The notes beneath the pieces were generated by a model. The model made no database searches and was not told where the DNA came from. It saw only the letters and a list, made by a program, of their open reading frames with translations. Both the position numbers and the translations under genes were made by a program. From an uncultured virus (IMG/VR IMGVR_UViG_3300030372_003518) (taxonomy: Duplodnaviria > Heunggongvirae > Uroviricota > Caudoviricetes), in IMG/VR virus record IMGVR_UViG_3300030372_003518: a stretch of DNA of 64,000 nt; one strand, given 5' to 3'. How positions within the stretch are numbered: the stretch's first letter is position 1; every line of letters begins with the position of its first letter. Positions 4,641-63,034 of this stretch are shown here, piece by piece.

Positions 4641-4692
4641 TTGATTTAATTTTCTCAAATATATAAATTTATTTTTTATCTACCTTTACGTT

Positions 4693-11603: not shown

Positions 11604-12164
11604 ATGAAAAAAATATTATATCACGGGACAAGCACAAAGTATCTTGACAAGATATTAAAGAAAGGACTGACCCCTCGCAAGAGTTTGGGTGTTAAGTCTA
11701 ATTGGGACGCAGAGTCAAGAGACGATATGATTTATTTAACGAGTGCATACGCACCTTACTTTGCACAAGCGTGTGTGGGGTCGAATGGTGGAGACCCGCT
11801 CGTATTAGAAGTCGAAGTAGAGAGCGACAACCTCTACCCTGACGAAGATTTCTTAGAACAATACTTACGCAATAAACATATTACTAAGGGAGATATATAT
11901 GAGAGAACAAAGTTTTATAAAGATAACTTGGAAGTGTTTAAACACTATACTAAAAAGAGTTTAAACGGACTCGGTAATGCGTGTCATAAAGGAATTATAG
12001 ACCCAAAAAGAATACGAAGATATGTAGTGTTGGACGCTAGTAAGATAATAATGTATAGCGACCCGACAATAACAAGAGCGAACTATATGTTACTTGGACA
12101 TCATTACAACGAGATATGTAGCGAGTATATATGGAACACTAAAGAAGTCCAATTAAATAAATAA
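11604..12164 (+). CDS. ADP-ribosyltransferase-fold protein (Tpt1/KptA NAD-binding-lobe-like)
   Basis: LYHGTS...ILKKGLTP...IYLTS...PLVLEV motifs. Confidence 0.65.
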   Translation: MKKILYHGTSTKYLDKILKKGLTPRKSLGVKSNWDAESRDDMIYLTSAYAPYFAQACVGSNGGDPLVLEVEVESDNLYPDEDFLEQYLRNKHITKGDIYERTKFYKDNLEVFKHYTKKSLNGLGNACHKGIIDPKRIRRYVVLDASKIIMYSDPTITRANYMLLGHHYNEICSEYIWNTKEVQLNK

Positions 12165-32060: not shown

Positions 32061-32471
32061 TTATATTTTTTTTATCATTTCGTGTGTGTAAGAATCTCCC
32101 TTTATGTATCCTAATTCTTCGTATGTTTTACTTAAACCTTCATGCCTTAATAGTGCATATATATATTTACTTCCATTGTCCTGACAGATGTTTGTTAAAA
32201 CAGCTATCAAAAACTTTACCGCCTCGTGTTTTAGTTGGGTATCCTCTATTTTTTTGTCGGAAATAATCCAGTCTACCCACGAAACTTTTGAGTTGGTCAT
32301 ATACATAAATCCAGCACAAATAGGCTTTTCTTCATGTAAAATCATCAATCCTCCTCTTCCTTCATCTGGTAAAAAATCTATGGGAGGCGGTTGCCATCCC
32401 CACTCTTTCCACCATCTAACTAATACATTTTCATAATCTGAAGGAGTTAATTCTTTTATATTAAATTCCAT
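32061..32471 (-). CDS. GNAT-like acetyltransferase
   Basis: PICAGFMY...WVDWII...YEELGY; usual position before podovirus ejection genes. Confidence 0.55.
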   Translation of the reverse strand: MEFNIKELTPSDYENVLVRWWKEWGWQPPPIDFLPDEGRGGLMILHEEKPICAGFMYMTNSKVSWVDWIISDKKIEDTQLKHEAVKFLIAVLTNICQDNGSKYIYALLRHEGLSKTYEELGYIKGDSYTHEMIKKI

Positions 32472-32491
32472 TCTATGCAAAGATACTAATT

Positions 32492-34297
32492 TTACGGATA
32501 GCTTTTCATTACATCGCTTTCAACTGCAAATAATTCAGTGGCTTGTGTGTTAAAGTTAGTTATAGTAAATACACAATAATGTCCAAGTAAACCATGAGAT
32601 TCTGCTTCAGAACTTTTTATAAACAAAATATACGGGTCATTCAAAGGAAATGTTACAGTGTTAGCAGAAGTGGTACTAACTATAATTTCATTAATTCCGT
32701 TTTTTAAATCAACGTTGATTTGCGTAACCACACCCCCATAAGATATAGTGGTATATGAAGGTAAAGAATGATAAACATAATCACCCACACTTAAAAACTT
32801 GCCAATAGACACTAGGGGGTTGGTGGAAAAACTAAGCGTAGCTGTCCCTGCATTCAAAGCAACGTTTGAGGTCTTACCTATACCGTTTGCTGACCTCATA
32901 GCGTATTGCCCTTCAAGTGCCGGCACTTCACCTTTTTGTCTTAAATATGCAAACCACGCACCTTCTTTCTTTTTAAACCACCCATCTTCCATAAAACCAT
33001 TTATTTGTATATCCGTTTCTAAATATGCTTCCCAAGCATTATTAGACTCTAAATTTAAAGTTTTAAATATTTTATTTTCTAGTGGGTTTTGGTTAAACAC
33101 GCTAGTTACTTGAGAATGATATTGCTCTCCGTAATAATTATTCCTAAGTTCGTTAACATTGTGTTGATATAAATTTCCTCCTTTAAAAGAATAAAAAAAG
33201 TTATTCATTCCTATCATGTATTCTGGTATGTAAGAATAAAATGAAGGCCATCCTTGTGAGTTCTGGCTATAGCTCACTGTCCATTCTGTGTCTACTGGGG
33301 ATGGGATAGGCGGAACTACACTTGGAGGATTAGGAGTTGGTGTAGGAGGCGTTGGAGTTGGTGGAGTAGACGAAGCACAATCTGTGGAAAACCTAAGATT
33401 GTTTTCACCTAAAAAGTATTGTCCATTAGTTGATTCAGGATATAATGTTTGATAACTTATAGTTCCGAAGTCTTCATTAACATTTAGCGTTATTGTTCCA
33501 GAATAAAAATCATAAGTGTTCCCATCTAATGCAGTTACATTGGCTCTTTCTAATTTTGAACCAGTGTAAGCTATTAGGTTTTCTTTTCCATTATTCAAAA
33601 ACGCAATAGGCCACTCAGCTGGTACGTTATTTATTACATATACCCCTGTGTTTACATTATATATACCCCATGTACCATTTATTACATAATATGAAAGTGT
33701 TGTATCTGGAAATGGAAATATGTCAGGCCATTCTATTGTACTGCTAAAAACTGTAAGATTGTTTGTAAAACTCAAACAAAACTCAGGTGTTCCAGGAGTT
33801 ATTGGTGGAGCAGGTGTTGGAGAAGGGACAGGCGTTGGATTTAAAGCCGCATCACACGCAGCACAATCAGCATAGGTTGGTATGCTTGCAATATCCAAAT
33901 AAGAAACATTAGGTGTGCTTACACCATTAGTCCAACAAATAGATTGATAAGCTAGTGTGGCTGGCCATGCAGTAAACCCAGCAGGTGCTCTAAATATTTG
34001 TTTTTGACTTGCATTTGTACAATTTTCGTATTCATAATATATATATCCTGCTAAAGGTGTAGGGTCTGCATTACCACAATTGGTTGTACATGTTTTGTCT
34101 TTATCAAACCATTCTCCCCCTAATGAATTAGGTATAATCTGAGCAGTTTCATCTAAACAATACGTAGCAAAAGTGTTAGCTGGTACATCTATTTGTATTT
34201 CTGTGCCATCACAACACGTAACAAGCCATGAACATATAGATGTATCACTTCCTACGGAGTCTATGGGACACGAAAAACGTATTGACTTACATGCCAT
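32492..34297 (-). CDS. virion protein: Cys/Pro-Thr-rich N-terminal part plus C-terminal part of tail muzzle
   Basis: PTP repeats; WTVSYS...GWPSFYSYIPE...NNFFYSFKGGNLYQH...KIFKTLNLES. Confidence 0.6.
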   Translation of the reverse strand: MACKSIRFSCPIDSVGSDTSICSWLVTCCDGTEIQIDVPANTFATYCLDETAQIIPNSLGGEWFDKDKTCTTNCGNADPTPLAGYIYYEYENCTNASQKQIFRAPAGFTAWPATLAYQSICWTNGVSTPNVSYLDIASIPTYADCAACDAALNPTPVPSPTPAPPITPGTPEFCLSFTNNLTVFSSTIEWPDIFPFPDTTLSYYVINGTWGIYNVNTGVYVINNVPAEWPIAFLNNGKENLIAYTGSKLERANVTALDGNTYDFYSGTITLNVNEDFGTISYQTLYPESTNGQYFLGENNLRFSTDCASSTPPTPTPPTPTPNPPSVVPPIPSPVDTEWTVSYSQNSQGWPSFYSYIPEYMIGMNNFFYSFKGGNLYQHNVNELRNNYYGEQYHSQVTSVFNQNPLENKIFKTLNLESNNAWEAYLETDIQINGFMEDGWFKKKEGAWFAYLRQKGEVPALEGQYAMRSANGIGKTSNVALNAGTATLSFSTNPLVSIGKFLSVGDYVYHSLPSYTTISYGGVVTQINVDLKNGINEIIVSTTSANTVTFPLNDPYILFIKSSEAESHGLLGHYCVFTITNFNTQATELFAVESDVMKSYP

Positions 34298-34342
34298 AAA
34301 GAGTTTATTTGTTTACAAATTTACGAATTTATAAATTAAAGT

Positions 34343-35758
34343 TTACAATCCTCCTCCCCAATTCCCAGTGCCGTAATGGTATGTTTGTATAAAATCAAAA
34401 TTAAATTTTCCTACAGGATTAAATTGAGCGTAAGGTAAGACTTTGTGAGGGATATTGTATTTTTTTATAAACTCAGAAAGAGCTATAGGACCTACCATTT
34501 GTCTTACAAAAGTACCCAGAGGCCTTCCTTCTATTTCTTTTCTATTGAGTATTTCTGGTAAATTAGCGGCAATGTTTGCTTTTAAGGTTTCTAAAAACAT
34601 GTTCCACAAATCTGAAGGAGGAGAAATAATAAAACCATTTTGATAATCTTCATCACCTGCTGATGATTCTAATAAATAAATAGAGTGACTGTCTAATTGT
34701 TTGGTAAAATCATTATACACTTCAAAATCCATATCACATATTACTCCCCCAATATCTCTGGCTATTAAATATCTTACAAAATCTATTTTATAAATAACTG
34801 GACATTGATTTAAAATTTCATAAAACTCTTTATCATAACGTTGTAAGTATGTGTTAATTCCCTCCCTATCACACCACTTGTTTCTTTTGTATCCTTTTAT
34901 TGTATCCCAACTATAATCACATCTAAACCATTCTTTGCTCCATCTGTTTTTGTCTTGTGGGGCTACTTGATGTATTATGTTAGGACGATAGTTAGTTTCA
35001 TATATCTTATTAAAATCTTGAATTGTTCTTACATCATCTTTTAAGCCAACAAGTCTAGGATTACCTTGATTAGGATGGTATAATTGACGCTGGTTTTTTT
35101 TATCATACAAATGATATATTCCAGGATAAGGTATATTTGTTATATCATACCCTGCTAAAAAAGTATTAAAGGTAGCGTAGGTTTCTTCAAAATACATATC
35201 TCCTTTTTGTTGATATATATCTAAATCAAGAACTCCAATGTCGCTAAAGAAATAACCAGCAGCTATAGTGCTTGGGCCAAGATACTTTTTTTCTTCAACT
35301 CCTTGAGCTCCAGGCCAAAACCTACCTTTGTCATCAACTTTATCTACTATATTAATATAACAAGCATCCCAACTTTTATCATCAGGTAAATAATACATAG
35401 AAGGAAACCCACTAAATATTACTTTGCCTTTATAATCATTATGATGATTTATTAATTTTGTGTCAAATCCTTTATCAAACCTCATGTGGGCATCTATCTG
35501 TAAATAATATTTATGATGTGGCTTGACGTAATTCCTTATTTGTTCACGAGCCCATACTACTCCCTTAGTAGTTGTATAATTACTATAAACCTCAGTAACA
35601 TTGATGTGATTTATATTTTCAGGATATTCGCTTTGATTAAAAACAACTATATGTAAATTATTTTTATCAGCAGCATTTTCAAGCAAACTATTAATTGTTT
35701 TTATTAACTCATCATCACAGTATGATGCTATAGAAATTAATAGTTCAGGTTTTTTCAC
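34343..35758 (-). CDS. bifunctional glycosyltransferase: Gnt1/GT60-like plus GT32 (DxD)
   Basis: ISIASYCD...GVVWAR...YLQIDAHMRF; PNIIHQ...KIDFVRY...GGVICDMDFE. Confidence 0.8.
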   Translation of the reverse strand: MKKPELLISIASYCDDELIKTINSLLENAADKNNLHIVVFNQSEYPENINHINVTEVYSNYTTTKGVVWAREQIRNYVKPHHKYYLQIDAHMRFDKGFDTKLINHHNDYKGKVIFSGFPSMYYLPDDKSWDACYINIVDKVDDKGRFWPGAQGVEEKKYLGPSTIAAGYFFSDIGVLDLDIYQQKGDMYFEETYATFNTFLAGYDITNIPYPGIYHLYDKKNQRQLYHPNQGNPRLVGLKDDVRTIQDFNKIYETNYRPNIIHQVAPQDKNRWSKEWFRCDYSWDTIKGYKRNKWCDREGINTYLQRYDKEFYEILNQCPVIYKIDFVRYLIARDIGGVICDMDFEVYNDFTKQLDSHSIYLLESSAGDEDYQNGFIISPPSDLWNMFLETLKANIAANLPEILNRKEIEGRPLGTFVRQMVGPIALSEFIKKYNIPHKVLPYAQFNPVGKFNFDFIQTYHYGTGNWGGGL

Positions 35759-35759
35759 T

Positions 35760-37043
35760 TTATTTTATTTTATAATGGACATAAAAGTTTCTAAAGAATG
35801 TACCACCAAAAGGCTCTTCTCTACCGTGTTCACATAGAGCTGATTCATATAAAATCATATCTCCTGGTTGAGCATAAACTTTATACCACTCTCCATCATG
35901 ACCTTGTATATCTAGTGGCCAATCATCAGACTCAGGCTTGTCTTTACAACCACAAGCTAAGTTTTTATCTACTATAATTATAGAGCTAATATGATGAGTT
36001 TCTACTCTATCGTAATGTTTTTCAAGAGTAGCTCCTTTTTTATAGGACCTTATACCATATATAAACGAAGGCTCTATATTACCATTATCAATCCATTGCT
36101 GATGCACAGGTAGTAACTGATTGTGTATTAAAGTTCTAATAGAGGGCAACGCATCAAAAGATAGAATTTCCGTCTCTCCCCCTTTTATAATATCTTCTTT
36201 ACCAACAAACTCTTCATTAACAGCTCTATCTTTTAACAGCTGATATGAGTCATTAATTATATTCCAAGTTTCATCAGGACATTTTTGTAATGAAAAACCA
36301 AGCTCTGTAAGCTTAGGTATTTGGTCTTTAGATGTAAAAACTTTTGGTGTATCTGTTTTAGTTGTAACCGGTTCTTTACGTTGTAATTCAGAGGCTTTAA
36401 CAAAATAGGATTTACTTGCAGCCTTATCTTTGACTACCTCTTTAGGTTTTTCTTCTATAGAATCATAATACATTTTTTCGTCTCCCGCTCCATCCCAACT
36501 TCTTTCTCTCCACCAAGAAGTAATAATATATTTCTTACCCTCTTCTACCGTAACACCTTCGTGCAAATATTGGTCTTGTATTTGCCCATCTTTCATGTTG
36601 TACCACCATAAAGCTTTCCCGGTTGCAGGTTCAATGGTTTTGTTTAAAGTGGGAAAATATGTTCCTCCACCTTTAAAATCTTCATTCAAATAAATCATTA
36701 ATGTATGAGTTCTATTACCAGAAGCCTTACAGTGCATATCATAGGCAGGCCCACTAAAAAAATCATTGTGCGGTTTAAAGTATTGACCAGGCTCATATAA
36801 TTGTCCTTGTATAGCTTCACCTTTTTCAAGTTCTAAACCTAGGGTTTTTGAAATTTTACTTTTAATATTAGACATCAGTGTAGTGTTCATGTCTAAATTA
36901 GATGTGCTAGATGTTCTGTGTTCAGTAACATCGGTTCTATCAGTTCCGCCTACCACCACAGAAGAACGACTGTGATTAGCGTCAATAATGTTAATTAATT
37001 CTTGACACTCTTCGGGTGTTAAATAATTATGTATTTCTTCCAT
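35760..37043 (-). CDS. prolyl 4-hydroxylase plus a second 2OG-Fe(II) dioxygenase domain
   Basis: IHNYLTPEEC, RTSS, YEPGQYFKPHND, RTHTLMIYLN, GGGTYFP, LHEG...GKKY; second HxD...H set (KHYD...EHGR). Confidence 0.9.
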   Translation of the reverse strand: MEEIHNYLTPEECQELINIIDANHSRSSVVVGGTDRTDVTEHRTSSTSNLDMNTTLMSNIKSKISKTLGLELEKGEAIQGQLYEPGQYFKPHNDFFSGPAYDMHCKASGNRTHTLMIYLNEDFKGGGTYFPTLNKTIEPATGKALWWYNMKDGQIQDQYLHEGVTVEEGKKYIITSWWRERSWDGAGDEKMYYDSIEEKPKEVVKDKAASKSYFVKASELQRKEPVTTKTDTPKVFTSKDQIPKLTELGFSLQKCPDETWNIINDSYQLLKDRAVNEEFVGKEDIIKGGETEILSFDALPSIRTLIHNQLLPVHQQWIDNGNIEPSFIYGIRSYKKGATLEKHYDRVETHHISSIIIVDKNLACGCKDKPESDDWPLDIQGHDGEWYKVYAQPGDMILYESALCEHGREEPFGGTFFRNFYVHYKIK

Positions 37044-37096
37044 TTGATTAAATTAAATTTAAATAAAGTTATGAATAAAAAATTGAATGTCAAACT

Positions 37097-39769
37097 TTAT
37101 GGACACGATGTGGTCGTACAAAGAACTGTAAATGATGAACCGTTCCATTCTCTGTAGAAAGACCCTGTGTTATACACTCCAGATATTGCTCCTCTTGTAC
37201 AAGCACTATCCCTATATAAAGCAGTAGCTGAACAGAAGTCAGTAGTGTTCATATAAAATTCTTGGTAATTGCTACACGTAATGCTTGATACACTTGAAAC
37301 AAACTCTAAGTCTATTGGGTTACATGATGCGCTAGGCGCAGGAGTCGGAACAGGACTTGGAGTCGGGCTAGGACTTGGAGTCGGGCTAGGACTTGGAGAT
37401 GGGCTAGGTGTGGTTGCCTCACATGCACTACAGTCTTCGTGGAATGAATCTGGTACATTTGAATTTACTGAACCTGGAGCATCTTGAACTTCGTAACAGT
37501 ATCCATCGTCCATTTTTACTGAGCTCCCTGCTGATAAAATTGAAGAGGAAGCTATTTCGCTATATGTCCCTGCGCTTCCATCACATCTGTTTACTAAATA
37601 ATAGTATGTTGACACTGTTGGTACTGGCACTGGACTAGGAGTCGGGCTAGGCGCAGGAGTCGGTGTTGGACTAGGTGTTGGACTAGGCGCAGGAGTCGGT
37701 GTTGGACTTGGAGCACATCCTCCACAAGAACCATAATTTGCTAGAGTGGTAACGCTACAATCTGACGCTGTTCCTACAGCTAAAATTTCCCAACATTTAG
37801 TTCCATTAAATCCGCTTCCACATGAACCTCCTCCTCCTCCACTAATTTGAAGTGATGTTCCAACTGCACTAGAACCATAAGTTCCAGTAACAGTTACATA
37901 AGCTGAAGATGAGCTTGGGTCGGCACAATCTCTAATCTGAATATTAGTCGTAGGTGTAGGGGTTGGTGAAGGTGTAGGTGCAGGTGTTGGTACTGGACAC
38001 GGTAATTTTGCGTTAACAGTTCCACTAGCGTTAATAAATAACACATAATCTGGAGTGCTTTGTCCTAGAACGTTTGAAACACCATACCATAATGAAGCGC
38101 CATTAAATATAGTTGACTCTGATGAGTTTGCATACATTGTATCTCCCACTTGAATTAGTCCCACATTCGCTCTACTTGTAAATATGTAATCTGGAGTGGT
38201 TAATGCACACGACTGGAAATCTTGACCAGTACCACTTCCAGCAAACGCTGTACTAAATGTAGTTGGACTTTCACAATCAAAACAATTAACATGACTAGTT
38301 AAACTTTCTATATCTACAGTAGAAGTTGCAGTTGTGGTTGCAGTATAATTAAAACATAAATTATTTCCGCTTCCATTATACTCTACTACATTAGGCCAGC
38401 TTGAGGTAGTAGTAAGTTTTCTAAATACTTGAGTTGTATTAGTGTAACACTCAGTATAAGTTGCATAATCATAAGTTGGTGTAGCACCACACGCTGTACA
38501 ACTACTGTAAACAGAATTTAAAGTAACTGACGAGTCATATAAAGATGCTGCATCATCAATAATTTCCCAACAATCTGTATTTGTAAACTCAGGGTTTACT
38601 CCGCCGGCAGCTCCAGTTATTTGTATCACATTACCATTTTGTAATGTTGTTGGTGAACTTAATCCAGTTACTCTTATTTTGTACGTTGGTGTAGTTGTAA
38701 AACACTGTCTTATTTCCACATCTTGTGTAAACACAGGAGCTGGTGTTGGAGATGGTGTAGGAGTAGCCATACAATCTACAATTGAATCAACAACTCCAAG
38801 TGAACTTATTAATAATGCATATCCACTATCTAAGTTTGGATAATGACCATTTACATTTGTTACACCATACCATTTAAGACCCCCGTTCCAAATATTAGTC
38901 AGACCAGAGTTTGTATATATTATATCATTTACTTGTATCGAAGCCACATTCGCTCTTGATGTATACATGCTGTTGGTAGCTTGAAGTGGACAAGCAATAC
39001 TTGAAGCGCTTTGTCCGTTTCCTACAGTATTAGTAGAAAATATTTCTGTTCCACTTACCGCAGGTGTTGGGCTAGGTGTTGGGCTAGGTGTTGGGCTTGG
39101 ACTCGGAGTTGTAGCCTCACAAGTAGCACAATCAACGTAAGTGTCCACTATATCATTAGTGCTTGTTGAGCCTGTGGTTGAAGGGTTTTCATAACACAAG
39201 TTGCTATCCTTAACAACTGCTGGGAAAGAACTGCCCGAAACTTTTCTAAATACTTTAGTTACAGCAGTTCCACAAACTGTATATTCTCTATAATCATAAG
39301 TTACAGTTGGAACAGGTGTTGGACTAGGGCTAGGGGTTGGACTAGGGCTAGGGATTGGAGCAGGTGAAGTACCACACGCTGTACAATCTGAATAACTAAC
39401 TAGACCATTAACATTTATAGTAGATGTTGAACCAGTAGCCTGTGGGTTGTGATAACAAATACTATTATAAGACACTGTTGCTGGAAAACTTCCCCCTGAA
39501 ACAATTCTAAATACTTCATCACTCGCTATACCATCACACGCTGTATATACTCTATAATCATAAACAATAGGAGTAGGCGTAGGAGTAGGTGTCCCACAAT
39601 TAGGGCAATCCTCTTCAGCAAATAACACTCCAGAAGCTTGCTGCCTCACAATTGATTCATCTGAATACCATCCGTCAGGAGCAAATGTAGATAGCGCTGC
39701 ATCTAAATAAAGAGCGGTAGCAGTTGAAAAACTTGCTGAGCTATAATAATATGTTCCTGTTGTTGCCAT
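37097..39769 (-). CDS. Pro-Ser/Thr-repeat, Cys-rich virion decoration/fibre protein
   Basis: Repeated CxxC modules linked by (PS/PT)n tracts. Confidence 0.7.
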
Positions 39770-39794
39770 TTACAATTTTACAAAGTTAATTAAT

Positions 39795-42700
39795 TTAAGG
39801 TATTGCACATCGTGAATCTCCACATCCTGATACTAGAACTGTTACTTCTCCATTTTGCCCACTTCCCCCTACATCATATAATGATGCACATCCAGTTGTT
39901 GTACCAAATCTATACTGAACCTCGTCCCCTACAACAATACCTAATGACACATCCGCTTTTAAATAAACTGCTTGCAAACTTACACAATCAGTACCTAAAT
40001 AATAGTTATATGTAGGTGTTGGCACTGGTGTTGGCGCAGGTGTAGGAGCAGGTGTTGGCGCTGGTGTAAACGTACAGTTACAACAGGCATCAAATATGCT
40101 AGCAGACGAATAACAAAGTTGTTGTCCTAACGCATTTCTTAAATCATATATTAAATATAGTTTACTACCACTTGCAGGTAATCCAAATTGAGCGCTGTAT
40201 AAATCTGGAGCACCAGTTGTATCAATTGGTGTTGCCAATATTGAAGCTGCTAATAAACTATTTATGTCAGTTGAATTGTTTTCAAATAAAGTATCAGTTC
40301 TTAAATACCTAAACTGATTTTCATTAGGGTCAAACTGGAAATTGTCAAAGTTTAACTTGTTGTTTTTCATTGTAATTACCGCACCATCTGGTGGTATTAC
40401 GGCAGAACCTTGAGGGCCTACAAGCTCTCTATATTGTGAAACAATTGGTTCACTTGCACTGGTTAAAAATGTAACCAAGTCGGATTGTGTTGGAGATGTT
40501 ATAGATGAGTCTGACCAACTAAATTCGGTGTGAGTAAATTGGCCGGCATTTGAATTATTTGTTAGAGTAATACTGTATACATTAAACAATTCTTCTTCAG
40601 GACATTGAACCGTAACCTGTATTGTATCGTTTACAACCGCATCAGTAGTAACAATTAAAACCACTTCAGTTGGCGTTGGATTTGGTTTTGGAAACTTTAG
40701 AGTTCCACTTTGGTAAACTAATCCTGTTGTATATGTAACCCCATCATATATAGCTTGTATTGTGTATCCAGTTCCAGAAGCCTGTCCTTCTGTTTCAATA
40801 TCTACCCCACCCTCAGTTACAATTTGCTGTTCTGTTCCTTCAGTTACTATTAAATCTGTATTTTCAAAAGGTATTACATAATCTATTTCTACATAATAAA
40901 GGTTAGAGGGAGGCCCTACATCTTCACCTATATTCACACAATAAACAAATTCTTCGCCTGCAACTACGGTAATGTTTTTAGTTACACCACACCCTGTACA
41001 GAGTTCTGTCTCTGGCTTTATTATGGTGTTAGTTGAAAAAACATATTCTTGCATGTATGGGTCATAACCCCCCAGCTTTTGAGTAGGCGAGGCTTCAGCA
41101 AATAAATCTCTAAACCAACTACGCATTCCCTCGTTAGATATTACAGTAAGAACTTCATTTTGAGCTGACGACCCCGTTAGTTTTATAACTACATTTCTTT
41201 TGGCATCAGTAAAATATTTGTTTTCGCCAAATTCTGCAAAACTTTCAGGGTGATTACTTATACCATAATCTTCTATACGAGCTATTTGTGTTCCTAAAAC
41301 TTCTGGAACAGATGTTATAACTCCTCCTCCTGTTGAATCGGAAAGTAAGTTTTTACCCGCAAGTACGTAAGAAATCTTATCTTCTTGTAAAACAAGTATA
41401 TCTGTTTCTCTTGCGAATAATATCTCTACATCACCATAAGTTTCTTCAAGAGCTTTAAAGTTTAATAAACCTAAATTAAATTCATTTAATTTATTTACAT
41501 TTGACTCATCATTGTATACACCGCTATATGTTAAATCAGCAAACCTATGCGCTGCTTTATACTCTTCGTTTGATGTTGTAAATATTCTGTTACCTAAAGT
41601 AACTTCTTTACCTTTTATAGAATCTCTTATCTTATTACTTTCAACTCCATTACCAAAAGTATAACAGTTAAAAAATCCTGTATTTACAATAGCTGACTGG
41701 TTTATTAAACCAGTGGTTGAATCTGCACTTTGATTTTGAACGTTACCTAAATGTAAATCTCCATTTATATCAAATGATTCACTGTTCTCATACCATACAT
41801 CTGCAAGCGCATCTTCTGGTTCAGTTTCAAATACAAACGTAGAGTCAGCTCTATAAACTGTAAAGTTTACTTCTACCCTAGATATTCTGTGCGACCTATC
41901 TCCCCCATTGTAACACGAGCTTGAACCTGATACTAATAAATATATTAAATTATTCCCATCAGGGTCTTGCGTACTTGTATCTTCATATAGTCTATAATAA
42001 AAATCATTATTCGGAGTAGATGCTGTAGAGTCAAAATATGAAGCCGACGCTATTTGGCTAGCGTTTAAACTTCCTGTGTATGTAATAGAAGTTGCATAAG
42101 GCGGGCTAGCTTGTGAGTTTACTGTGTTGATATATGTATTTACTATTTGCTCATTTTCCGCAATATCTTCTACACCTTCATTCAACACTTGTGAAACATT
42201 GTCCCCTTGCCACCACTCCGACATATTGGCATAATTACGTGTGGACGTTAATGTTTTAGTTAAAGTATAATTCTTTTTTGTACATGATGGGTCAACATCT
42301 TCAGGAACTCCTTCTCTAGTAAACTGAATACTCATTTGTATTCTAGTTCCTGCCGGAACATCATAAACATTAAATGCAGTAGTTATTCCTGAAGAATTTA
42401 CTCCCGTAAATAATGGATAAGCCACAACAGGATAATCGTCAGTTTGACCTTTAGCTGATGCCTTATAAGGGCCTGTACTTATAATAGCATCAGTCCCAGT
42501 TTCTGCTACAAAATTTGATGCGTTAATTTTCATATACGTACCACCAAAGACCTCTACCTCAGCACCAGCAGCATCATAAATTTTTATAAATCCAGAAGAC
42601 TGATTTTCTTTTTCTAAAACAGTAGCATATATACACGAATTTTTAACACCTGTTGAATCTGCTTTTACAATTAATCTATCACCTGCTTCTACTTTTGCAG

Positions 42701-44795
42701 CATTCTCACCATCTAATAAAAAGTAACTAGAGTTTGTGCCTGACTCGCTATAAACTATATTACTATAAATAGTTTGATAATTTGCAGCAGTTGGTTTTAT
42801 TACAAACTTATATTTTGTTGCCCAAGTAGGTGCGTATTGAGTGTTAGGTATTTCTACTTGGATATAGTTTCTTTTGTTGGAGACACCACAAGGGAGATTG
42901 ACTGCATTAAGTGGGCTTACCTGAGCGGTAGAAGCTCTATTAAAATCATCCATGTAAACCATCCCAATTTCATAACCTCTATTACTATGTAAACTTTCAA
43001 TAGTTGGTGAAGTCTGAGCGGTCACAGTAGCGCTTGAATATCTAAAATATGCAATCATTGGGTGTACACCAGATACACTATAAGTTGCAGCGTTTAATTG
43101 TATTTGAATTTTTTTAGAAGATGGCCCGTCTATCCTAAGACCCAATTCTTCTCCTTTAGCAGGAGTTAAAGCAGTAGCAGAGGTTCTTCCTGTTTGGACT
43201 AAGGTGTTATAGTTAACATCAAAAGATGCAGGTATAGTTCTGTTAAACAAATCGGTTAGTGTGTTCCCGTTTCCAGCATTAGCTACAGTTTGTATTGTTG
43301 TAGCTGTTCCTATTTTTTCTACAAAATCTGTATCAGTTGCTAAATCATATACTGTTTGATAAGTTTTAAGCAGCGTGTAGCTCCAAGTTAAATATAATAT
43401 ATCATTAAAAGGAACAGCAGCTGGCCCTGTAGAAATATGGTCTGCTGCATAAGCAATACCAAATGAAAATGTTAGGGTAGTGCCTGCTACTAATTGAGAA
43501 GGAATTTGTTGTCCCGTGACCGGGCTTACTCTTGCTTCTAATAAAGATAAATCAAAAGTTAGCTCACTATCATCTACATTTTGAGTATGACCAGTTGCCG
43601 GTGTAAAATCTATTGTATATGTTGGACCTAAAGTAAAACCATCTGGTAATGTTGTATAGTTTATATCTTCAGATTTTAATGTAGATAAAAAAGTAAAATC
43701 TACTTTTCCTCTTGAAGACACTAAGTCGTATCCTTCAGTGTAATTTCCATAAACTAATCTATTGCCCATTAAAGTTTGTGCTTTAGCAAGCTGTGGAACA
43801 TTATCAAAAGTTCTTAATATTTCCGAGCTAGGTAATACAGTAAATATTTTACGCTCAGTAAAAGCTATAGTTCTACTTTGATTGTCTGTAAATCCTAATT
43901 GTTTTTTATTAAATGTTTCTACAATTTTTATAGAACTAGAATCGGCTTCTTTAAATACTATTTGAATATCGGTAACTTTTGAACTACCTGTGTCGAAAGT
44001 TATATTACAAGCATTTAAAGTATTTACCATACCTTCATTAAGATAGCTATTTGAGCTAAAATCAAATTGTCCAGGCTGAAAAGAAGGTTCAGAAAATTGT
44101 GATATTGCTGAATACTCATTGTTTTCATATTTATATCTATATGCAAAACAAATAAATTTGTCTTCTAAAAATGTATCTACTTTACCCGTAACATTAAATG
44201 GTTGGATGGTAGGAGCACTAGTGGGAGGTTTTTTAATAACTAATATATCGTCCTGATTGAAACCATCCGTTAATAAACCGGGTTGTGGGTCGCCATAATT
44301 TTGGTTTATATTAATTACCCTAGGCGGATTGTAGTTATCTGTAAAAAATAATAAATTATCTATTTTGTCTACACCTGTTATCAGGTATAAAGGGTTAAAA
44401 TTAAGTGTAGTGTTAATGCCATTTCCATCATCAATACTAATGATATGATAAATTAATTGTCCCGTTTCTACATCATAAGAAATAATTAAATCTAATTTAC
44501 CAGTTGCTCCTTGAGTAAATGCAGGGTCATGAACAAACCAATAAATAACTAAATTAGCTCCATCTTCAAATGCTCCAATACATCTTGCTTGAGAACTTAA
44601 TTTTGTACCATCTACATACTGTATCTCGGTTAACGGTATATTCCCTTTAGAATTTTCAACAGCTCCTATTTCGGACTCTTCTGTTGAACCAAGCCTTACA
44701 TTAACAGCATTTACATATTCTCCGTTTGGAACAAGCCTTTCATCTAGGCTTTTGTTCATACGGCCAGCTATAAAATTTCTTTGAATGTTTGCCAT
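39795..44795 (-). CDS. tail stabilisation (muzzle) protein, N-terminal and major part
   Basis: FIAGRMNKSLDERLVPNGEY...GAVEN; FAYRYKY..NEYS; GNGVESNKIRD; YGISNHPESFA; C-terminal PAPT repeat. Confidence 0.75.
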   Translation of the reverse strand: MANIQRNFIAGRMNKSLDERLVPNGEYVNAVNVRLGSTEESEIGAVENSKGNIPLTEIQYVDGTKLSSQARCIGAFEDGANLVIYWFVHDPAFTQGATGKLDLIISYDVETGQLIYHIISIDDGNGINTTLNFNPLYLITGVDKIDNLLFFTDNYNPPRVININQNYGDPQPGLLTDGFNQDDILVIKKPPTSAPTIQPFNVTGKVDTFLEDKFICFAYRYKYENNEYSAISQFSEPSFQPGQFDFSSNSYLNEGMVNTLNACNITFDTGSSKVTDIQIVFKEADSSSIKIVETFNKKQLGFTDNQSRTIAFTERKIFTVLPSSEILRTFDNVPQLAKAQTLMGNRLVYGNYTEGYDLVSSRGKVDFTFLSTLKSEDINYTTLPDGFTLGPTYTIDFTPATGHTQNVDDSELTFDLSLLEARVSPVTGQQIPSQLVAGTTLTFSFGIAYAADHISTGPAAVPFNDILYLTWSYTLLKTYQTVYDLATDTDFVEKIGTATTIQTVANAGNGNTLTDLFNRTIPASFDVNYNTLVQTGRTSATALTPAKGEELGLRIDGPSSKKIQIQLNAATYSVSGVHPMIAYFRYSSATVTAQTSPTIESLHSNRGYEIGMVYMDDFNRASTAQVSPLNAVNLPCGVSNKRNYIQVEIPNTQYAPTWATKYKFVIKPTAANYQTIYSNIVYSESGTNSSYFLLDGENAAKVEAGDRLIVKADSTGVKNSCIYATVLEKENQSSGFIKIYDAAGAEVEVFGGTYMKINASNFVAETGTDAIISTGPYKASAKGQTDDYPVVAYPLFTGVNSSGITTAFNVYDVPAGTRIQMSIQFTREGVPEDVDPSCTKKNYTLTKTLTSTRNYANMSEWWQGDNVSQVLNEGVEDIAENEQIVNTYINTVNSQASPPYATSITYTGSLNASQIASASYFDSTASTPNNDFYYRLYEDTSTQDPDGNNLIYLLVSGSSSCYNGGDRSHRISRVEVNFTVYRADSTFVFETEPEDALADVWYENSESFDINGDLHLGNVQNQSADSTTGLINQSAIVNTGFFNCYTFGNGVESNKIRDSIKGKEVTLGNRIFTTSNEEYKAAHRFADLTYSGVYNDESNVNKLNEFNLGLLNFKALEETYGDVEILFARETDILVLQEDKISYVLAGKNLLSDSTGGGVITSVPEVLGTQIARIEDYGISNHPESFAEFGENKYFTDAKRNVVIKLTGSSAQNEVLTVISNEGMRSWFRDLFAEASPTQKLGGYDPYMQEYVFSTNTIIKPETELCTGCGVTKNITVVAGEEFVYCVNIGEDVGPPSNLYYVEIDYVIPFENTDLIVTEGTEQQIVTEGGVDIETEGQASGTGYTIQAIYDGVTYTTGLVYQSGTLKFPKPNPTPTEVVLIVTTDAVVNDTIQVTVQCPEEELFNVYSITLTNNSNAGQFTHTEFSWSDSSITSPTQSDLVTFLTSASEPIVSQYRELVGPQGSAVIPPDGAVITMKNNKLNFDNFQFDPNENQFRYLRTDTLFENNSTDINSLLAASILATPIDTTGAPDLYSAQFGLPASGSKLYLIYDLRNALGQQLCYSSASIFDACCNCTFTPAPTPAPTPAPTPVPTPTYNYYLGTDCVSLQAVYLKADVSLGIVVGDEVQYRFGTTTGCASLYDVGGSGQNGEVTVLVSGCGDSRCAIP

Positions 44796-55155: not shown

Positions 55156-55411
55156 ATCCTTGTTTTGTATTAGTTTTTTCTATTTTATCTCCTGATTCTA
55201 AAACCTCTTCTTCTGCATCTATCTTATTAAGTATATCAAAGGCATCAAATATAGCCAGCTTCTTTGTGGCTGCTGCATTTTTTAATCTATCAGCTGCCAG
55301 CTCATCTTCTGGGTCAGGTTTAATTATATCTTCTTTAGCTACCTTTATTAATTGCTCTACTGCTCTTCGACCTGCTTGAATAATACTTTTTTTTAATTCT
55401 TCTGAGTTCAT
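55133..55411 (-). CDS. putative terminase small subunit
   Basis: Helical 92 aa ORF overlapping the terL start. Confidence 0.55.
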   Translation of the reverse strand: MNSEELKKSIIQAGRRAVEQLIKVAKEDIIKPDPEDELAADRLKNAAATKKLAIFDAFDILNKIDAEEEVLESGDKIEKTNTKQGFAERRSK

Positions 55412-55971
55412 AGTTTTAATGTTATTTGATGGTCATACATACGATATAATTTTTCATCATCTACAGTAAACTCATATTCACTGTCGGGTTTAAAACAAAT
55501 TCTATCTCCCTTTTCAACTCCTTTAGAAGATAAGTATTTATTAGGGTATTTCATAATTCCTATCAAAGGTTCTTCTGTTCCTAGTTTAGATACAAAAGAT
55601 TCTTCTTTAGGTATAGGTTTTACAAAACAATACCTATCATGACAATACCACTCACCTTTGTGCTTATACATAAAGAACTGGTCGTTTTCAATAAAAAATA
55701 AATTGTCTTTAAAAAAACTCTTTCCGCTTTTTTGTCTTCCTTTCATATCGTTGTAAAACTTAAACACGTTATGATGAACCAAAAGAATGTCTCCTTTTTC
55801 TATTTGCCCGTTATATCCTATTGGAGTAGATACCACTTCTGCTTCTCTGTTAGAAGCTTTATGGTTTTCTTCTGAGGTGCTGGTTATAATTTCCATTCCT
55901 TCTATGGTCTTAGTATTTTTATAACGCTTATCATCTACAGGTTTAACGATAAAATAAAAAGGTGACTTCAT
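55408..55971 (-). CDS. tandem GroES-like co-chaperonin
   Basis: Two repeats of (F)IVKP...(E)KGD(I/R)(L/I) Cpn10-like pattern. Confidence 0.55.
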   Translation of the reverse strand: MKSPFYFIVKPVDDKRYKNTKTIEGMEIITSTSEENHKASNREAEVVSTPIGYNGQIEKGDILLVHHNVFKFYNDMKGRQKSGKSFFKDNLFFIENDQFFMYKHKGEWYCHDRYCFVKPIPKEESFVSKLGTEEPLIGIMKYPNKYLSSKGVEKGDRICFKPDSEYEFTVDDEKLYRMYDHQITLKL

Positions 55972-57897: not shown

Positions 57898-60800
57898 TTA
57901 ACTGTGGACATACGTTCCACTACCTGTGTATGTTAATATTGTTTCACTTCCGCTTGTTGTTACTGTTGGCGAACCTGTAACACTTCCTGAATAATCAGAG
58001 GTGTTCATTCTTAGTATTATTACTCCAGAACCTCCAGAACCACTTGTATAGCTTCCAGCATCTCCTGTAGCACCCCCACCTCCACCGGTGTTTGTACTTC
58101 CTGCTGTACCACTGCCATTATAAGGGCCTCCTTGACCACCACCACCTGAACCAGCTGCTCCTCCGCCGCCCGTATATCCTGAACCAGTTCCTCCTGTTCC
58201 ACCACCTCCTCCTGCATAAGCAGTAGATGTGGCGTCAATAGCAACCATTAAACCTGCTCCCCCTCCTCCTGGATATGGCCCGCTTCCGTCTACAGCTACA
58301 CCTACAGAGCCAGCTCCACCACCACCACCACCTAAGTATGGATGAGTTGCCGCCATTCCATCTCCTCCTGCAAAACCTTCATTTGCTGTTCCCGCTGCGG
58401 CAGTTGGGCCTCCTGTCCCTGAACCACTACCACCACCTGAACCACCAGTAGATGGAGCAATATTATTAGAACCTCCACCACCACCACCAACTGTATTCAC
58501 AGTAGCACCTCCAGCTATTGTAGAGGCTGAACCAGCATTACCAGGGTCTTGATAATTTGTTGCGTTATCGATTGAAGCTCCACCAGCTCCAACAGTTATT
58601 GTATAAGTTCCAGCTGCTAATGTAATAGCAGTTTCAGCACTAGCGCCTCCACCTGAAGTGTTACCGTAAGATGTTCTCAGTCCACCAGCTCCTCCACCTC
58701 CACCGTTAGAACCACCAGATGCTCCACCAGCTACTACTAAATATTCCATTTCTCCAGACGCAACAGCTGGCTGCGCTGGGTTTTCTTTAAAGGCAAAATA
58801 TATATATTCATTTCCAGCTACATTATCTCCTATTGCTACTCCTCCTGCGGTTATTTCCCATCCTGTTGACGTTATGGTCATACCCGGCGCATTTGATGTA
58901 TTATTACCATCCTGATTATTAGGCTCTAAATATCCTCCCGCAGTAATTCCTCTTGCTGTATCATATAACCTCCAGTTATCAGCGCCTACTGTAGATTTTA
59001 TAAGCACGAAGTTAGGCGCAAATCCTGTTGTAACAGCTTGTCCTGTAAGCCCATCTCCAACATAACTTCCAAAATGACTATAACCTGCAATACTTTTAAA
59101 AGCGTATGCGATTGCATTTTGATTTCCTGACAAAGTCCAACTGGGACAAAATACGGTATCATTAACTATGCTAAATAAATTTGTATAAGTTCCTGGTGAG
59201 CTTGTTGAATTTATGTTCATACCTTTATTTAAACCCATTGCAGTATGATAAACATACCAGTCTTCTACGCCATCAGTTCTTTTAAGAAAAATTGCATCGG
59301 GTGTTGTTCCTAAACCGTGTCCAACCGTAGTGCTTCCGCTAGGTGAAGATGGGGTTGTAAATTTTATAATACTAAATCCAGCTGCTTGATTTGCAGCCAC
59401 ACTACTTGATTCAGTACCATCTGTGTTTATAGCTGGACTGGAAGTTGCTTTCCAGTTATATGAAACGTAAGTATTACCCAAATCATTAGTAGCTCCGTTA
59501 CCCGCAGTAGTCCACCCATCAGCATCAAACGAACTTACAGCATTGGTAGTGGTATAGTCTGCTGCTGTTAGATTACTAGAAATCATTTGTTCAGGCCCTC
59601 TTAAAGTGTCAAACCAAGCGTGGTCTTCAGTGCCGTCGCTTCTTTTTATCCACACTAAGTTTGGGCTAAATCCAAGTCCTGCTATAGAACGTATAGTATC
59701 ACTTCCGTCATAGGTGTTTGAATTAAAACTATCTGCTAAAACTGGAGCACTACTTGCGTCTGAAGCAAAGGCCATATAGATATATTCATATCCATTTCCA
59801 TTGACTTGTCCTGAACCACTACCACCACCTGTTCCTACTGATTGAAACCCGTTAGAAAAAAAATCTATTTTTGCACCTGCTTCACTAGCCTCAACGGCAG
59901 TTGAATTAGCAAATAACCTTTCGTCTCTTGGATTTGAAGTTTGTCTTTTATTATCAACAATAAACCAGCTATCCGTACCGCCAGAAATTACTTTTATCAT
60001 CAACCAAGCAGGCTCAAACCCTGTATTTATGATTGGGCCGGCTGTTGAACCGTTACCTGTATATGTTCCAACTTTTGAGTATTGAGATTTATCAGCAAAG
60101 CAGTACATTATATAATCTTTTCCTGATGCAGAATAATCACCAGTATTAGTAAAATCTATTGTTGATGCGCCTAATGTTGTAGAGAGTCCACTTGTAACAG
60201 CTTGAGAAGTCGTATTTAATCCTTCAATTCTAATCAAGCTTCCTGTTGCAGTTGTCCAAACATACCAGTTTACTGCATCCGATACGTTTTTAAATATCAC
60301 CATTGTTGGTGCTGTGCCAAGCCCGTGTCCTACCTGAACATTACTTCCTGTTCCTGTGTATTGAACTATTGAAAATCCTGCTGCCTGATTCACTTGAACT
60401 GTTGATGTTATATTACCATCTCCATTACTAACCGTAGTTCCTGCGTTTGCTTTCCAACACCAAGCCACATATTTAGAACCAGTGTCATTAATTTCATTAT
60501 CACTACCTACTGTAAACCCATCCGAATCGAAAGCATTTAACCTATTAACACTACCTAAAACGTTTGCCGCTGTACTATTTGATACTATAAAGTTTCTTAT
60601 TCCCCTAGAAGAATCGTACCAGTTATGATTTTCAACAGCGGTATCTCTTTGTTTAATCCAAACTAAATCTGGTTGAAATCCAACGCCAGTTATATTATTT
60701 GTTCCACCATTCCCATCATATAAAACAGTATTAAAGTTCTCACTTGCAACAGGGGGTATATCTTCTGATTGTAAATCTCTCCAAGCTCCACCATCCCAAA

Positions 60801-60951
60801 ACTCTATTAAGTTAGTTGTAGTGTTATATCTCCACTCACCAGTAGATGGACTAGCAGGTCTTTCTGCTGTCGTTCCATTTGGAAGTTGCAAAGCAGTGTT
60901 TAAACTTCCTAAGTCAAATAAATCCGGTGATGTAATTTTTGTTGTTGCCAT
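57898..60951 (-). CDS. tail fibre protein with repeated GFxPDLVWIK modules and Gly-rich C-terminal domain
   Basis: MATTKI N-terminus; GTTAERP; repeated modules; LVVAGG...GGSGVIILR domain. Confidence 0.75.
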   Translation of the reverse strand: MATTKITSPDLFDLGSLNTALQLPNGTTAERPASPSTGEWRYNTTTNLIEFWDGGAWRDLQSEDIPPVASENFNTVLYDGNGGTNNITGVGFQPDLVWIKQRDTAVENHNWYDSSRGIRNFIVSNSTAANVLGSVNRLNAFDSDGFTVGSDNEINDTGSKYVAWCWKANAGTTVSNGDGNITSTVQVNQAAGFSIVQYTGTGSNVQVGHGLGTAPTMVIFKNVSDAVNWYVWTTATGSLIRIEGLNTTSQAVTSGLSTTLGASTIDFTNTGDYSASGKDYIMYCFADKSQYSKVGTYTGNGSTAGPIINTGFEPAWLMIKVISGGTDSWFIVDNKRQTSNPRDERLFANSTAVEASEAGAKIDFFSNGFQSVGTGGGSGSGQVNGNGYEYIYMAFASDASSAPVLADSFNSNTYDGSDTIRSIAGLGFSPNLVWIKRSDGTEDHAWFDTLRGPEQMISSNLTAADYTTTNAVSSFDADGWTTAGNGATNDLGNTYVSYNWKATSSPAINTDGTESSSVAANQAAGFSIIKFTTPSSPSGSTTVGHGLGTTPDAIFLKRTDGVEDWYVYHTAMGLNKGMNINSTSSPGTYTNLFSIVNDTVFCPSWTLSGNQNAIAYAFKSIAGYSHFGSYVGDGLTGQAVTTGFAPNFVLIKSTVGADNWRLYDTARGITAGGYLEPNNQDGNNTSNAPGMTITSTGWEITAGGVAIGDNVAGNEYIYFAFKENPAQPAVASGEMEYLVVAGGASGGSNGGGGGAGGLRTSYGNTSGGGASAETAITLAAGTYTITVGAGGASIDNATNYQDPGNAGSASTIAGGATVNTVGGGGGGSNNIAPSTGGSGGGSGSGTGGPTAAAGTANEGFAGGDGMAATHPYLGGGGGGAGSVGVAVDGSGPYPGGGGAGLMVAIDATSTAYAGGGGGTGGTGSGYTGGGGAAGSGGGGQGGPYNGSGTAGSTNTGGGGGATGDAGSYTSGSGGSGVIILRMNTSDYSGSVTGSPTVTTSGSETILTYTGSGTYVHS

Positions 60952-60953
60952 AA

Positions 60954-62156
60954 TTAGCTAGTTAATTTAAATGCTAGATATATATATGTGCTTCCACTTC
61001 CGTTTACCAAATCTGATGTTCCATAAGGCTCAAATCCAGTTGCCGTTACAGTAATAGAGTGAACGGTATCTGACTGTAATCTTTCGTTACTTTGCAGGGG
61101 CATCCATTCAGTCCAATGGTCGGAAGAATTAGTAGCCGAGTTTCCTGTCCACCACTGCTCAGCACCACTAGCTCTTTTAAGAATTATAAAATCAGGTTTA
61201 AACCCACATGAAACACTAGGAGACCCTTGACTTCCACTTCCAGTATAACTTCCAAAATGACTATAATCACTTTGAGGTGTAAAACAATAAGCAATATGCT
61301 CATCTGTACTAGTATTAACAGGGCCCCAAGTTCCAATGCTAAATACAGATGAAGTTGGCGCAGTATCATTCCAAACATTAGATGCTGTTCCCTCTGCCGT
61401 TGTTTCGTTTAAAGCTAAATATTTTGTTGGCCCTAAGCTTGTATGAAATACTGCCCAAGCTGATGCGGTTGACAAGTTTTTAACAACAATAAACTCAGGA
61501 GTCGCCGATAACCCGTGACCAATAGTTTCATTATTTCCTGTACCTGTATATTTTACAATACTTATTCCCGTCTCATTATTAGCTTGAACTGTTGAGGTTA
61601 TAGACCCTGTTCCATTGCTGCTTGTAGTACCTCCATTAACTCTCCAACTTATACCATAAGTATTGTGGCCGCTTCCATTAACAGTATCATTAGTTCCTAA
61701 AGTAAATCCATCACTATCAAAAGATTTTAATGTTTGAGCATCCGTTCCTTCCACTGCATCCGATGCGCTTTGTATATATTTAGTTGCTCCTCTTGTAGAG
61801 TCAAACCAATACCAAGGGTCACTGTTAGAGCTTGTGTCATAATTTTTTATAATCACTAAATCAGGTTGATTTCCAAATCCCGTTACTGCTTGTTCTGCCG
61901 CTGTTCCTGTCCAGTTTAATAATTTAAAAACTTTTTCAGGAGGAAGTGCTACGTTGTTTAATTGTTTCCAATCCGTTCCATTGTAATACTCTTCACAAGA
62001 AGCTGAACCTTCCGATGCTTCATTCGTATTATTTCTTATCATACCTTCGCTAGCGGTAGGTCTATTATTATTAGTCCCTGTTGGCATTTTAAGCCCGCTC
62101 TCGGAGGTTGACTCATTTAAATCTAAAACTTCTGGTATTACTTTTGTTGTTGCCAT
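60954..62156 (-). CDS. tail fibre protein (paralogue)
   Basis: Same MATTK N-terminus and PDLVIIK module. Confidence 0.7.
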   Translation of the reverse strand: MATTKVIPEVLDLNESTSESGLKMPTGTNNNRPTASEGMIRNNTNEASEGSASCEEYYNGTDWKQLNNVALPPEKVFKLLNWTGTAAEQAVTGFGNQPDLVIIKNYDTSSNSDPWYWFDSTRGATKYIQSASDAVEGTDAQTLKSFDSDGFTLGTNDTVNGSGHNTYGISWRVNGGTTSSNGTGSITSTVQANNETGISIVKYTGTGNNETIGHGLSATPEFIVVKNLSTASAWAVFHTSLGPTKYLALNETTAEGTASNVWNDTAPTSSVFSIGTWGPVNTSTDEHIAYCFTPQSDYSHFGSYTGSGSQGSPSVSCGFKPDFIILKRASGAEQWWTGNSATNSSDHWTEWMPLQSNERLQSDTVHSITVTATGFEPYGTSDLVNGSGSTYIYLAFKLTS

Positions 62157-62157
62157 A

Positions 62158-63033: not shown

Positions 63034-63034
63034 A

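Follow-up and report, generated by a model that had tools for sequence, protein, structure and literature searches.

A candidate cassette for proline hydroxylation and O-glycosylation of tail-tip linkers in an uncultured marine podophage

Glycosylation of phage virions, viral prolyl 4-hydroxylases (P4Hs), and hydroxyproline (Hyp) glycans are known separately, from mycobacteriophages, from chloroviruses, and from plants, algae, and protists, respectively. Mycobacteriophage transferases glycosylate the structural proteins of their own phage, as related in the passages of PMC12619734 and PMC11256854 that cite Freeman et al. 2023, and a chlorovirus P4H hydroxylates Pro peptides in vitro according to an excerpt of PMC7019647. 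In the Skp1 pathway of protists, Gnt1 requires a hydroxylated proline, as stated in a section of PMC6939170. P4HA was counted among the commonest viral auxiliary genes, at 62% of Baltic water stations, and its use was called cryptic in a passage of PMC9301287. In the open-access literature, with subscription journals and supplements outside the scope, no paper was found that joins virion glycosylation, viral P4H, and Hyp glycans in a phage, and the excerpts of PMC12801897, PMC13738210, and PMC12386605 contain nothing on such a system. Here, we describe a candidate for it in a 64,000-nt stretch of DNA (hereafter the window) from an uncultured Caudoviricetes virus, IMG/VR IMGVR_UViG_3300030372_003518. 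The window encodes a two-domain 2-oxoglutarate (2OG) enzyme and a fused glycosyltransferase (GT) beside structural proteins with Pro-rich linkers, and sequence comparisons make it probable that the prolines of these linkers are hydroxylated and O-glycosylated, with Hyp serving as an acceptor.

The open reading frames (ORFs) of the initial annotation were recovered at their coordinates, all on the minus strand, and the 2OG enzyme (35760-37043, 427 aa) does lie directly upstream of the transferase (34343-35758, 471 aa), the stop of the former falling 1 nt before the GTG start of the latter. On one side of the pair are the muzzle (tail-tip) N-terminal gene (39795..44795, 1666 aa; PHROG 14478 virion structural protein, E 7e-212) and a gene for an 890-aa beads-on-a-string Cys/Pro protein (37097..39769), the main candidate substrate, and on the other is the muzzle C-terminal gene (32492..34297, 601 aa; PF25729 crAss muzzle C-terminal domain, E 1e-18). 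Because the region is covered by contigs from four marine runs, belonging to four studies, with a single contig bridging 33194-37660, the locus is not an assembly artefact, and the incomplete word shares seen in runs X5, X8, and X12 reflect strain divergence rather than loss of the cassette. No RNA run was listed among those with the region. In the proposed mechanism, the cassette would modify the phage's own tail-tip proteins post-translationally in the host cytoplasm. In the 890-aa protein and both muzzle proteins, prolines of the alternating (S/T/A/V-Pro)n linkers would be hydroxylated by domain 1 of the 2OG enzyme, and the fused transferase would then O-glycosylate the same linkers from host nucleotide sugars, at least one of its domains accepting Hyp. 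The product would be extended, sugar-coated spacers holding binding modules away from the tail tip, with the sugar genes forming a swappable cassette that varies the coat. Stiffening of the linkers, protection from host proteases, and adhesion are putative benefits put forward in the initial annotation. Each of these chemical steps and the benefit are our inference, and what was observed is the gene anatomy, the families, and the co-occurrence described below.

All three flanking structural genes carry Pro-rich linkers as first annotated, with (P-S/T/A/V)n tracts amounting to 123, 11, and 18 residues, as against maxima of 12, 6, and 6 among 2000 shuffled versions of each. Comparable tracts are absent from all other annotated genes of the window. 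The DUF7483/Gly-rich fiber genes (57898-64000, minus strand) are without Pro-rich linkers, and the linkers are therefore confined to the tail-tip module. In total the linkers comprise 186 residues, with 97 Pro, 36 Thr, 25 Ser, 10 Ala, and 9 Val. Strictly, the term extensin-like that had been applied to them does not hold, since the three proteins display alternating X-Pro dipeptides and no Ser-Pro3+ motif, whereas extensin is described in an excerpt of PMC4769139 as Ser-Pro3-5 repeats. The 890-aa protein consists of about ten modules of 60-100 aa, most with C..C..CxxC and mutually homologous (E down to 8e-22), which are joined by seven (X-Pro)n linkers on the minus strand (39569-39604, 39308-39364, 39062-39106, 38735-38761, 37952-38002, 37619-37711, and 37334-37408); its position suggests that it belongs to the virion. 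The muzzle N gene ends in a Pro-rich linker (40014-40064, minus strand) and one 4-Cys module, and the muzzle C gene has Pro-rich linkers at 33785-33838 and 33296-33364 (minus strand).

Domain 1 of the 2OG enzyme (residues 1-184; 36492..37043, minus strand; PF13640, E 2e-15) aligned with solved P4Hs, and its iron triad H92-x-D94 and H161 as well as K171 were invariant in 13 of 13 aligned relatives. The conserved Lys of P4Hs binds 2-oxoglutarate. A phmmer comparison with solved P4Hs gave E 2e-25 to 6e-12, the latter for the chlorovirus enzyme. Fold comparison (VIA) returned the Chlamydomonas P4H (Z 19.7, 27% identity), followed by the chlorovirus (19.0), Bacillus (18.0), and human collagen (17.6) enzymes; the top five rows spanned Z 17.6-19.7 with root-mean-square deviations of 2.5-3.4 over 156-174 aligned residues, and the next class stood at Z 14.9. 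Dictyostelium PhyA/PHD (6T8M) ranked ninth with Z 13.7 and 17% identity. Judged from sequence and model, domain 1 is a predicted peptidyl P4H of the algal/collagen/chlorovirus type and not of the PhyA type.

A second 2OG domain, unrelated to domain 1 and unmentioned in the initial annotation, occupies residues about 235-427 (35760..36341, minus strand) and belongs to an unnamed 2OG-oxygenase family (PHROG 2954/3531) that is widespread and has many stand-alone members. Its motif residues are H343-x-D345 and H406. Sequence and profile searches found no solved relative of domain 2, its Atlas matches were unnamed clusters only, and the best listed folds, the orthosomycin oxygenases AviO1 (Z 11.8) and EvdMO1 (Z 11.6), fell on a low-confidence part of the model and provide a lead only. 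Domain 2 may likewise hydroxylate proline, or it may be an oxygenase that tailors sugars. One lineage has domain 2 alone (L195:9411-9995; L numbers denote loci) between a Pro/Thr repeat gene and a gene for a protein like hydroxyproline O-arabinosyltransferase (HPAT).

Oxygenase-plus-transferase pairs act on DNA in other phages, and a domain 2 without assigned activity would suit such a role, in which the oxygenase hydroxylates a base and the transferase glycosylates it. By fold, however, domain 1 is nearer to P4Hs than to either TET (Z 10.7) or AlkB proteins (at most Z 13.1). The genes belong to the tail operon, while those for replication are found elsewhere on the opposite strand, and the cassette co-varies with protein linkers, so that hypermodification of DNA appears highly improbable here. 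Phage DNA glucosylation is mentioned in a passage of PMC12619734.

The N-terminal domain of the transferase (34994..35758, minus strand) is GT60-type, as had been proposed, with 58 bits against a cut-off of 21 for PF11397 (E 1.3e-15) and the quoted motifs in place (IASYCD at 10, GVVWAR at 66, and LQIDAHMRF at 86); D89-x-H91 and H216 were invariant in 17 of 17 sequences. The C-terminal domain (34343..34990, minus strand), proposed to be GT32-like, has the DxD motif D342-x-D344 and a PF04488 match just under the cut-off (E 8.7e-4, 20.4 bits vs 23). Relatives 42-60% identical to this domain do pass (30.7-35.4 bits), including a 60% identical stand-alone GT32 (30.7 bits) that is the sole transferase behind P4H in L154, and the domain falls in a starred clade together with the lone GT32s of ten contigs of the phage clade described below. 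In GT60 trees built without characterized eukaryotic members (Gnt1 or Ser/Thr enzymes), the window GT60 groups in a starred clade of 12 rows that is separate from the GT60s without a P4H. A single-sequence search found no solved relative of the transferase. Several GT60 domains are fused to 2OG domains in the metagenomic proteins P0013, P0016, and P0017 of 1600-2500 aa.

The window phage is a predicted phi13:2-related marine podophage because of its structural gene set (terminase, portal, capsid, ring, and ejection-type genes) and a muzzle 32% identical to a structural protein of Cellulophaga phi18:3/phi13:2; Flavobacterium phages also match, and the host is presumably flavobacterial. In crAss001, the muzzle is a hexamer at the tail tip, according to a section of PMC10172136. 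Since the muzzle genes gp120 and gp121 adjoin each other in phi13:2, the 890-aa gene and the enzymes are regarded as an insertion into a split muzzle. Residues 340-600 of the muzzle C protein are 33% identical to gp121, and Cys modules with two Pro-rich linkers have been added ahead of this conserved 265-aa domain. Behind the muzzle follows a conserved 139-aa gene (32061-32480, minus strand) that cassette-less relatives have too; the gene in the same position in MW202828, alike by position only, is annotated as an acetyltransferase subunit.

To follow the cassette through this clade, loci were collected from seven viral-contig scans, each seeded with a different query: the transferase (13 loci), the ring protein (best 80 of 387), P4H (best 80 of 284), the HPAT-like gene (74), the canonical GT60 (best 80 of at least 534), P4H domain 1 (best 80 of 350), and, starting from cassette-less members, the muzzle C domain (best 80 of at least 532). 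Contigs that came up more than once and loci lacking either muzzle gene were removed, leaving 142 distinct contigs with the whole muzzle-to-muzzle slot, the proportions of which mirror the queries and not prevalence. Cassettes were lacking from 84 of them, which had 0-30 Pro-rich residues (median 0), while 49 carried P4H plus transferases with 117-384 Pro-rich residues and 9 carried GT60 without P4H with 22-334. The co-occurrence with repeat genes that the initial annotation had named as a check is seen in these relatives, the enzymes tracking the linkers across them.

This pattern bears on a host target, with the cassette acting on envelope glycans, in receptor masking, or on a host protein such as EF-Tu, and hitchhiking in a slot that varies within the tail operon. 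By sequence, domain 1 is matched best by a bacterial P4H that, according to its PDB title, modifies EF-Tu. The dehydratase, epimerase, carbamoyltransferase, aminotransferase, and adenosine 5'-phosphosulfate (APS) kinase partners of related cassettes are of the kind common in surface-glycan clusters, the clade contains few independent events, and many phage P4Hs have no repeat neighbor. Yet among the 142 contigs, a cassette never occurs without linkers, nor do long linkers occur in the absence of a cassette, the order repeat gene-2OG-HPAT recurs in unrelated phages, linker composition shifts with the enzyme set, and inspection revealed no signal or membrane segment in the 2OG enzyme or the transferase. 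A host target is accordingly held to be quite unlikely.

The transferase partners of P4H proved to be swappable. Among 82 distinct contigs with an intact P4H-to-muzzle stretch, 42 had an HPAT-like gene (11 of them alone), 26 a GT60, 10 a GT32 alone, and 4 a GT-B/carbamoyltransferase set; the GT60 cases comprised 12 GT60-GT32 fusions, 7 with a radical S-adenosylmethionine (SAM) gene, and 7 with a GT-B enzyme and an epimerase. GT60 and HPAT occurred together in 0 of 82. The minimal cassettes consist of P4H and one transferase (11 HPAT-only, 10 GT32-only). The 277-aa HPAT-like protein scored above the cut-off of PF23452 (hydroxyproline O-arabinosyltransferases) in 4 of the 6 members tested and in 3 of 8 more distant ones, and its model adopts a predicted GT-A fold (predicted local distance difference test score 88); the window itself is without an HPAT gene. 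HPAT and GT60 cassettes interleave among close hosts with 3 changes. In L103 and L113, identical muzzle N (1655/1655) and linker proteins (867/867) accompany different cassettes, GT60 plus radical SAM versus HPAT plus dehydratase, with a crossover near P4H, which is either a recombinant or a chimeric assembly. Larger cassettes (L119:11266-15962, L146:10257-12716, and L100:9738-13690) variously add genes for APS kinase, deacetylase, DegT aminotransferase with acetyltransferase, or carbamoyltransferase. The neighbor of the APS kinase gene resembles a sulfotransferase by motif, and the glycans of these larger cassettes are likely tailored or sulfated. A gene next to the P4H of L390 resembled HPAT on visual inspection, but neither Pfam nor profile comparison bore this out, and it was left uncounted.

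Lineages with no match to the clade markers and with different structural genes were considered unrelated, and these contribute at least five further architectures in which the module is found. Considering the HPAT-anchored loci, 67 of 74 hold one or both 2OG domains, and 3 of the other 7 have the gene at a contig edge. Outside the clade, HPAT and 2OG occur together in 22 loci, 19 of which have an adjoining Pro-rich gene. Their settings include tape-measure genes (L192 group), tail-fiber/baseplate genes of large phages (L183, L186-188), a portal/terminase block with domain 2 only (L195 group), and unassigned genes (L190/191). In addition, L154 presents a repeat gene, P4H, and GT32 followed by a tape-measure gene, the upstream side being cut, and the L400 group presents repeat genes, P4H, GT60, and a carbamoyltransferase. 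Natural fusions join GT60 to HPAT, GT60 to 2OG, and, directly behind P4H in L430, the HPAT, GT-B, and GT60 domains. The simple idea that GT60 replaces HPAT as the Hyp initiator was weakened, as both are found together or fused outside the clade.

GT60s are also common in phages where P4H is absent. A canonical GT60 of 400-430 aa occurs in at least 534 viral loci; 2OG domains were found in the flanks of 0 of the best 80 of these, counting against a Gnt1 role, whereas Thr repeats accompany 42 of the same 80 vs 0 of 75 cassette-less controls. Such loci probably represent a separate, mucin-type glycosylation system. Among cultured phages, the canonical GT60 is present in four jumbo phages of Xanthomonas and Stenotrophomonas. 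The nine clade contigs with GT60 and no P4H have Thr-rich linkers, the median Thr/Pro being 0.78 (n=9, range 0.47-0.86 in GT60-only phages) vs 0.41 (n=49) with P4H, rows that are not independent, and the P4H-less GT60 systems look Thr-directed. The window cassette could likewise be of mucin type only, GT60 placing sugar on linker Ser/Thr and GT32 extending it, while bare Hyp from P4H stiffens the linkers or tunes recognition. Besides the canonical loci and the nine contigs, this option draws on the Ser/Thr polypeptide GlcNAc transferases within GT60 (passages of PMC8724618 and PMC6939170), on polypeptide GalNAc transferases as the nearest solved relatives of the GT60 profile (E 0.003), and on the Toxoplasma GT32 Glt1, an extension enzyme in a section of PMC6939170. 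It is opposed by the separate clade of the window GT60, by the minimal cassettes of P4H and one transferase, and by Ser/Thr-poor linkers that exist only where P4H is present, and it is judged unlikely, although less so than a host target.

Linkers associated with P4H can indeed be poor in Ser/Thr, as in the PAPAPAPAPA type (Thr/Pro 0.13) and a Val-rich type without Ser (Thr/Pro 0.24), which suggests Hyp as the acceptor. Another shift concerns Ser, with a median Ser/Pro of 0.31 (n=18) in P4H+GT60 contigs vs 0.09 (n=28) in P4H+HPAT/GT32 contigs. L190 and L191 have enzymes that are 96%/91% identical but differ in their repeat, (PSPV)n as against (PT)n, and this does not decide the acceptor because both repeats offer a hydroxyl residue.

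Several points weigh against Hyp glycosylation of the phage's own linkers. The sampling was query-enriched, and on the host tree the cassette switches state 2 times and P4H 4 times, equal to 1-2 independent pairs, because of which the within-clade pattern is exceptionless yet statistically weak; neighboring genes can, moreover, hitchhike together. Outside the clade, a Pro-rich gene lay within 8 kb in 15 of 32 new P4H loci, and 14 of the same 32 had a transferase or sugar gene by profile, 10 having both and 13 neither. P4H, HPAT, and GT60 occur without a Pro-rich gene in the fetched stretch in L184/185 and L447/449/451, and the L195 lineage pairs HPAT with domain 2 only. Every window linker also offers Ser/Thr, and where P4H domain 1 is present outside the clade, Thr/Pro ranges over 0.01-0.93 and is not always low; composition is therefore one-sided evidence only. 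The Chlamydomonas P4H was solved with (Ser-Pro)5, its conserved Tyr140 contacting the target proline, as described in an excerpt of PMC9676403, and the equivalent here is Phe89, Phe being present in 140 of 140 matching domain-1 ORFs, duplicates included. Among 50,697 records, neither the two-domain 2OG enzyme (best cover 43%) nor the HPAT-like gene of the relatives was found in a cultured phage. Finally, a passage of PMC7019647 citing unpublished data states that Hyp was undetected in purified chlorovirus virions.

Should Hyp be glycosylated as preferred here, two orders of the transferase domains come into question. It is possible, and slightly preferred, that GT32 takes Hyp in place of the HPAT-like enzyme, while GT60 adds N-acetylhexosamine (HexNAc) to nearby Ser/Thr or extends the glycan. 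This order is favored because the nearest GT32 relatives are the only transferase beside P4H in 11 contigs, because HPAT-like enzymes are the fusion partners or neighbors of all other window-clade GT60s whose context is known, and because P4H+GT60 linkers are Ser-richer than P4H+HPAT/GT32 linkers; it is likened to plant extensins, which carry sugars on both Hyp and Ser according to a section of PMC8012813. The P4H+radical SAM+GT60 cassettes, in which GT60 is the sole transferase, and the extending Glt1 count against it. The originally annotated order, with GT60 first and GT32 extending, is only one of two given the same 11 contigs and is slightly less favored. More broadly, it is quite possible that several unrelated lineages of tailed phages run Hyp O-glycosylation in the bacterial cytoplasm with a fixed P4H and interchangeable initiators (HPAT/GT95-like, GT60, and GT32), giving glycosylated polyproline stalks at the tail tip, the coat being switched like a serotype when cassettes are exchanged.

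No sugar-synthesis gene was found in the cassette or elsewhere in the window, and the donor sugars would therefore be host-derived. Promoter and terminator scans were uninformative (74 vs 57 +/- 8 and 7 vs 6.9), and the NCBIfam search gave no useful match. Elsewhere in the window, phage-encoded GroEL (3039-4658) and GroES (55408-55971) lie far apart on the minus strand. A 186-aa ORF (11604-12164, plus strand) has a weak PARP catalytic-domain match (E 0.002, under the cut-off) and is a possible ADP-ribosyltransferase, and an early gene region holds an SprT-like metalloprotease match at 7070-7678 (plus strand; E 2e-4, under the cut-off).

If this broader reading of several phage lineages is true, the abundant marine viral P4H genes gain a target, GT32 becomes a new Hyp-initiating family, and soluble relatives of plant and protist enzymes sit in the phage gene pool. 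The locus names a candidate substrate, so that the question can be addressed with two small soluble enzymes and short peptides, and it predicts modified peptides that standard virion proteomics would overlook. In addition, such cassettes offer soluble, bacterially expressed P4H/transferase pairs for glycoengineering.

Compared with known systems, the cassette shares the P4H of chlorovirus PBCV-1 (vCPH/A085R), a virus-encoded enzyme of the same structural class, but adds a second 2OG domain, and the chlorovirus is a eukaryotic virus. Mycobacteriophage glycans are located at the C-termini of capsid and tail-tube subunits in the passages citing that work, which mention no proline hydroxylase, whereas the predicted target here is the repeat linkers of the tail tip. 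The protist mucin-type polypeptide alpha-GlcNAc transferases of GT60 (Dictyostelium Golgi, Trypanosoma cruzi) act on Ser/Thr-rich repeats and fit the P4H-less phage GT60s, unlike the window GT60, which belongs to a divergent subclade always found with P4H. The Skp1 pathway of Dictyostelium and Toxoplasma (PhyA, Gnt1 of GT60, PgtA, and Glt1 of GT32) shares a cytoplasmic P4H and the GT60 and GT32 families. It differs in the PhyA-type hydroxylase (Z 13.7 vs 19.7 for the best P4H), in its single Skp1 proline against many repeat prolines, and in Glt1, which adds the fourth sugar, onto fucose, rather than acting as a second step; neither the Skp1 substrate nor a PgtA-type GT2/GT74 was found among the 41 window ORFs (Pfam) or in the cassette. 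Identity with this pathway, as initially annotated, is not supported, given the hydroxylase type, the Ser/Thr transferases within GT60, and the absence of P4H beside most phage GT60s, while the accompanying proposal that the phage hydroxylates and glycosylates its own Pro-rich tail linkers was strengthened by the enzyme-linker tracking, the P4H type, and HPAT behind the same P4H. The plant and green-algal hydroxyproline-rich glycoprotein pathway (P4H, then HPAT1-3 of GT95 and SGT1 of GT96, families described as related in a section of PMC8012813) uses the same P4H type on non-contiguous X-Pro repeats, and the PF23452 enzyme stands directly behind P4H in 42 of 82 phage relatives, though not in the window; the phage system would be soluble and act in the bacterial cytoplasm, not in the endoplasmic reticulum and Golgi, and lacks the Ser-Pro3+ motif. 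Although its hydroxylase type and substrate set it outside the Skp1 pathway, the cassette as proposed works like the plant/algal and Skp1 pathways.

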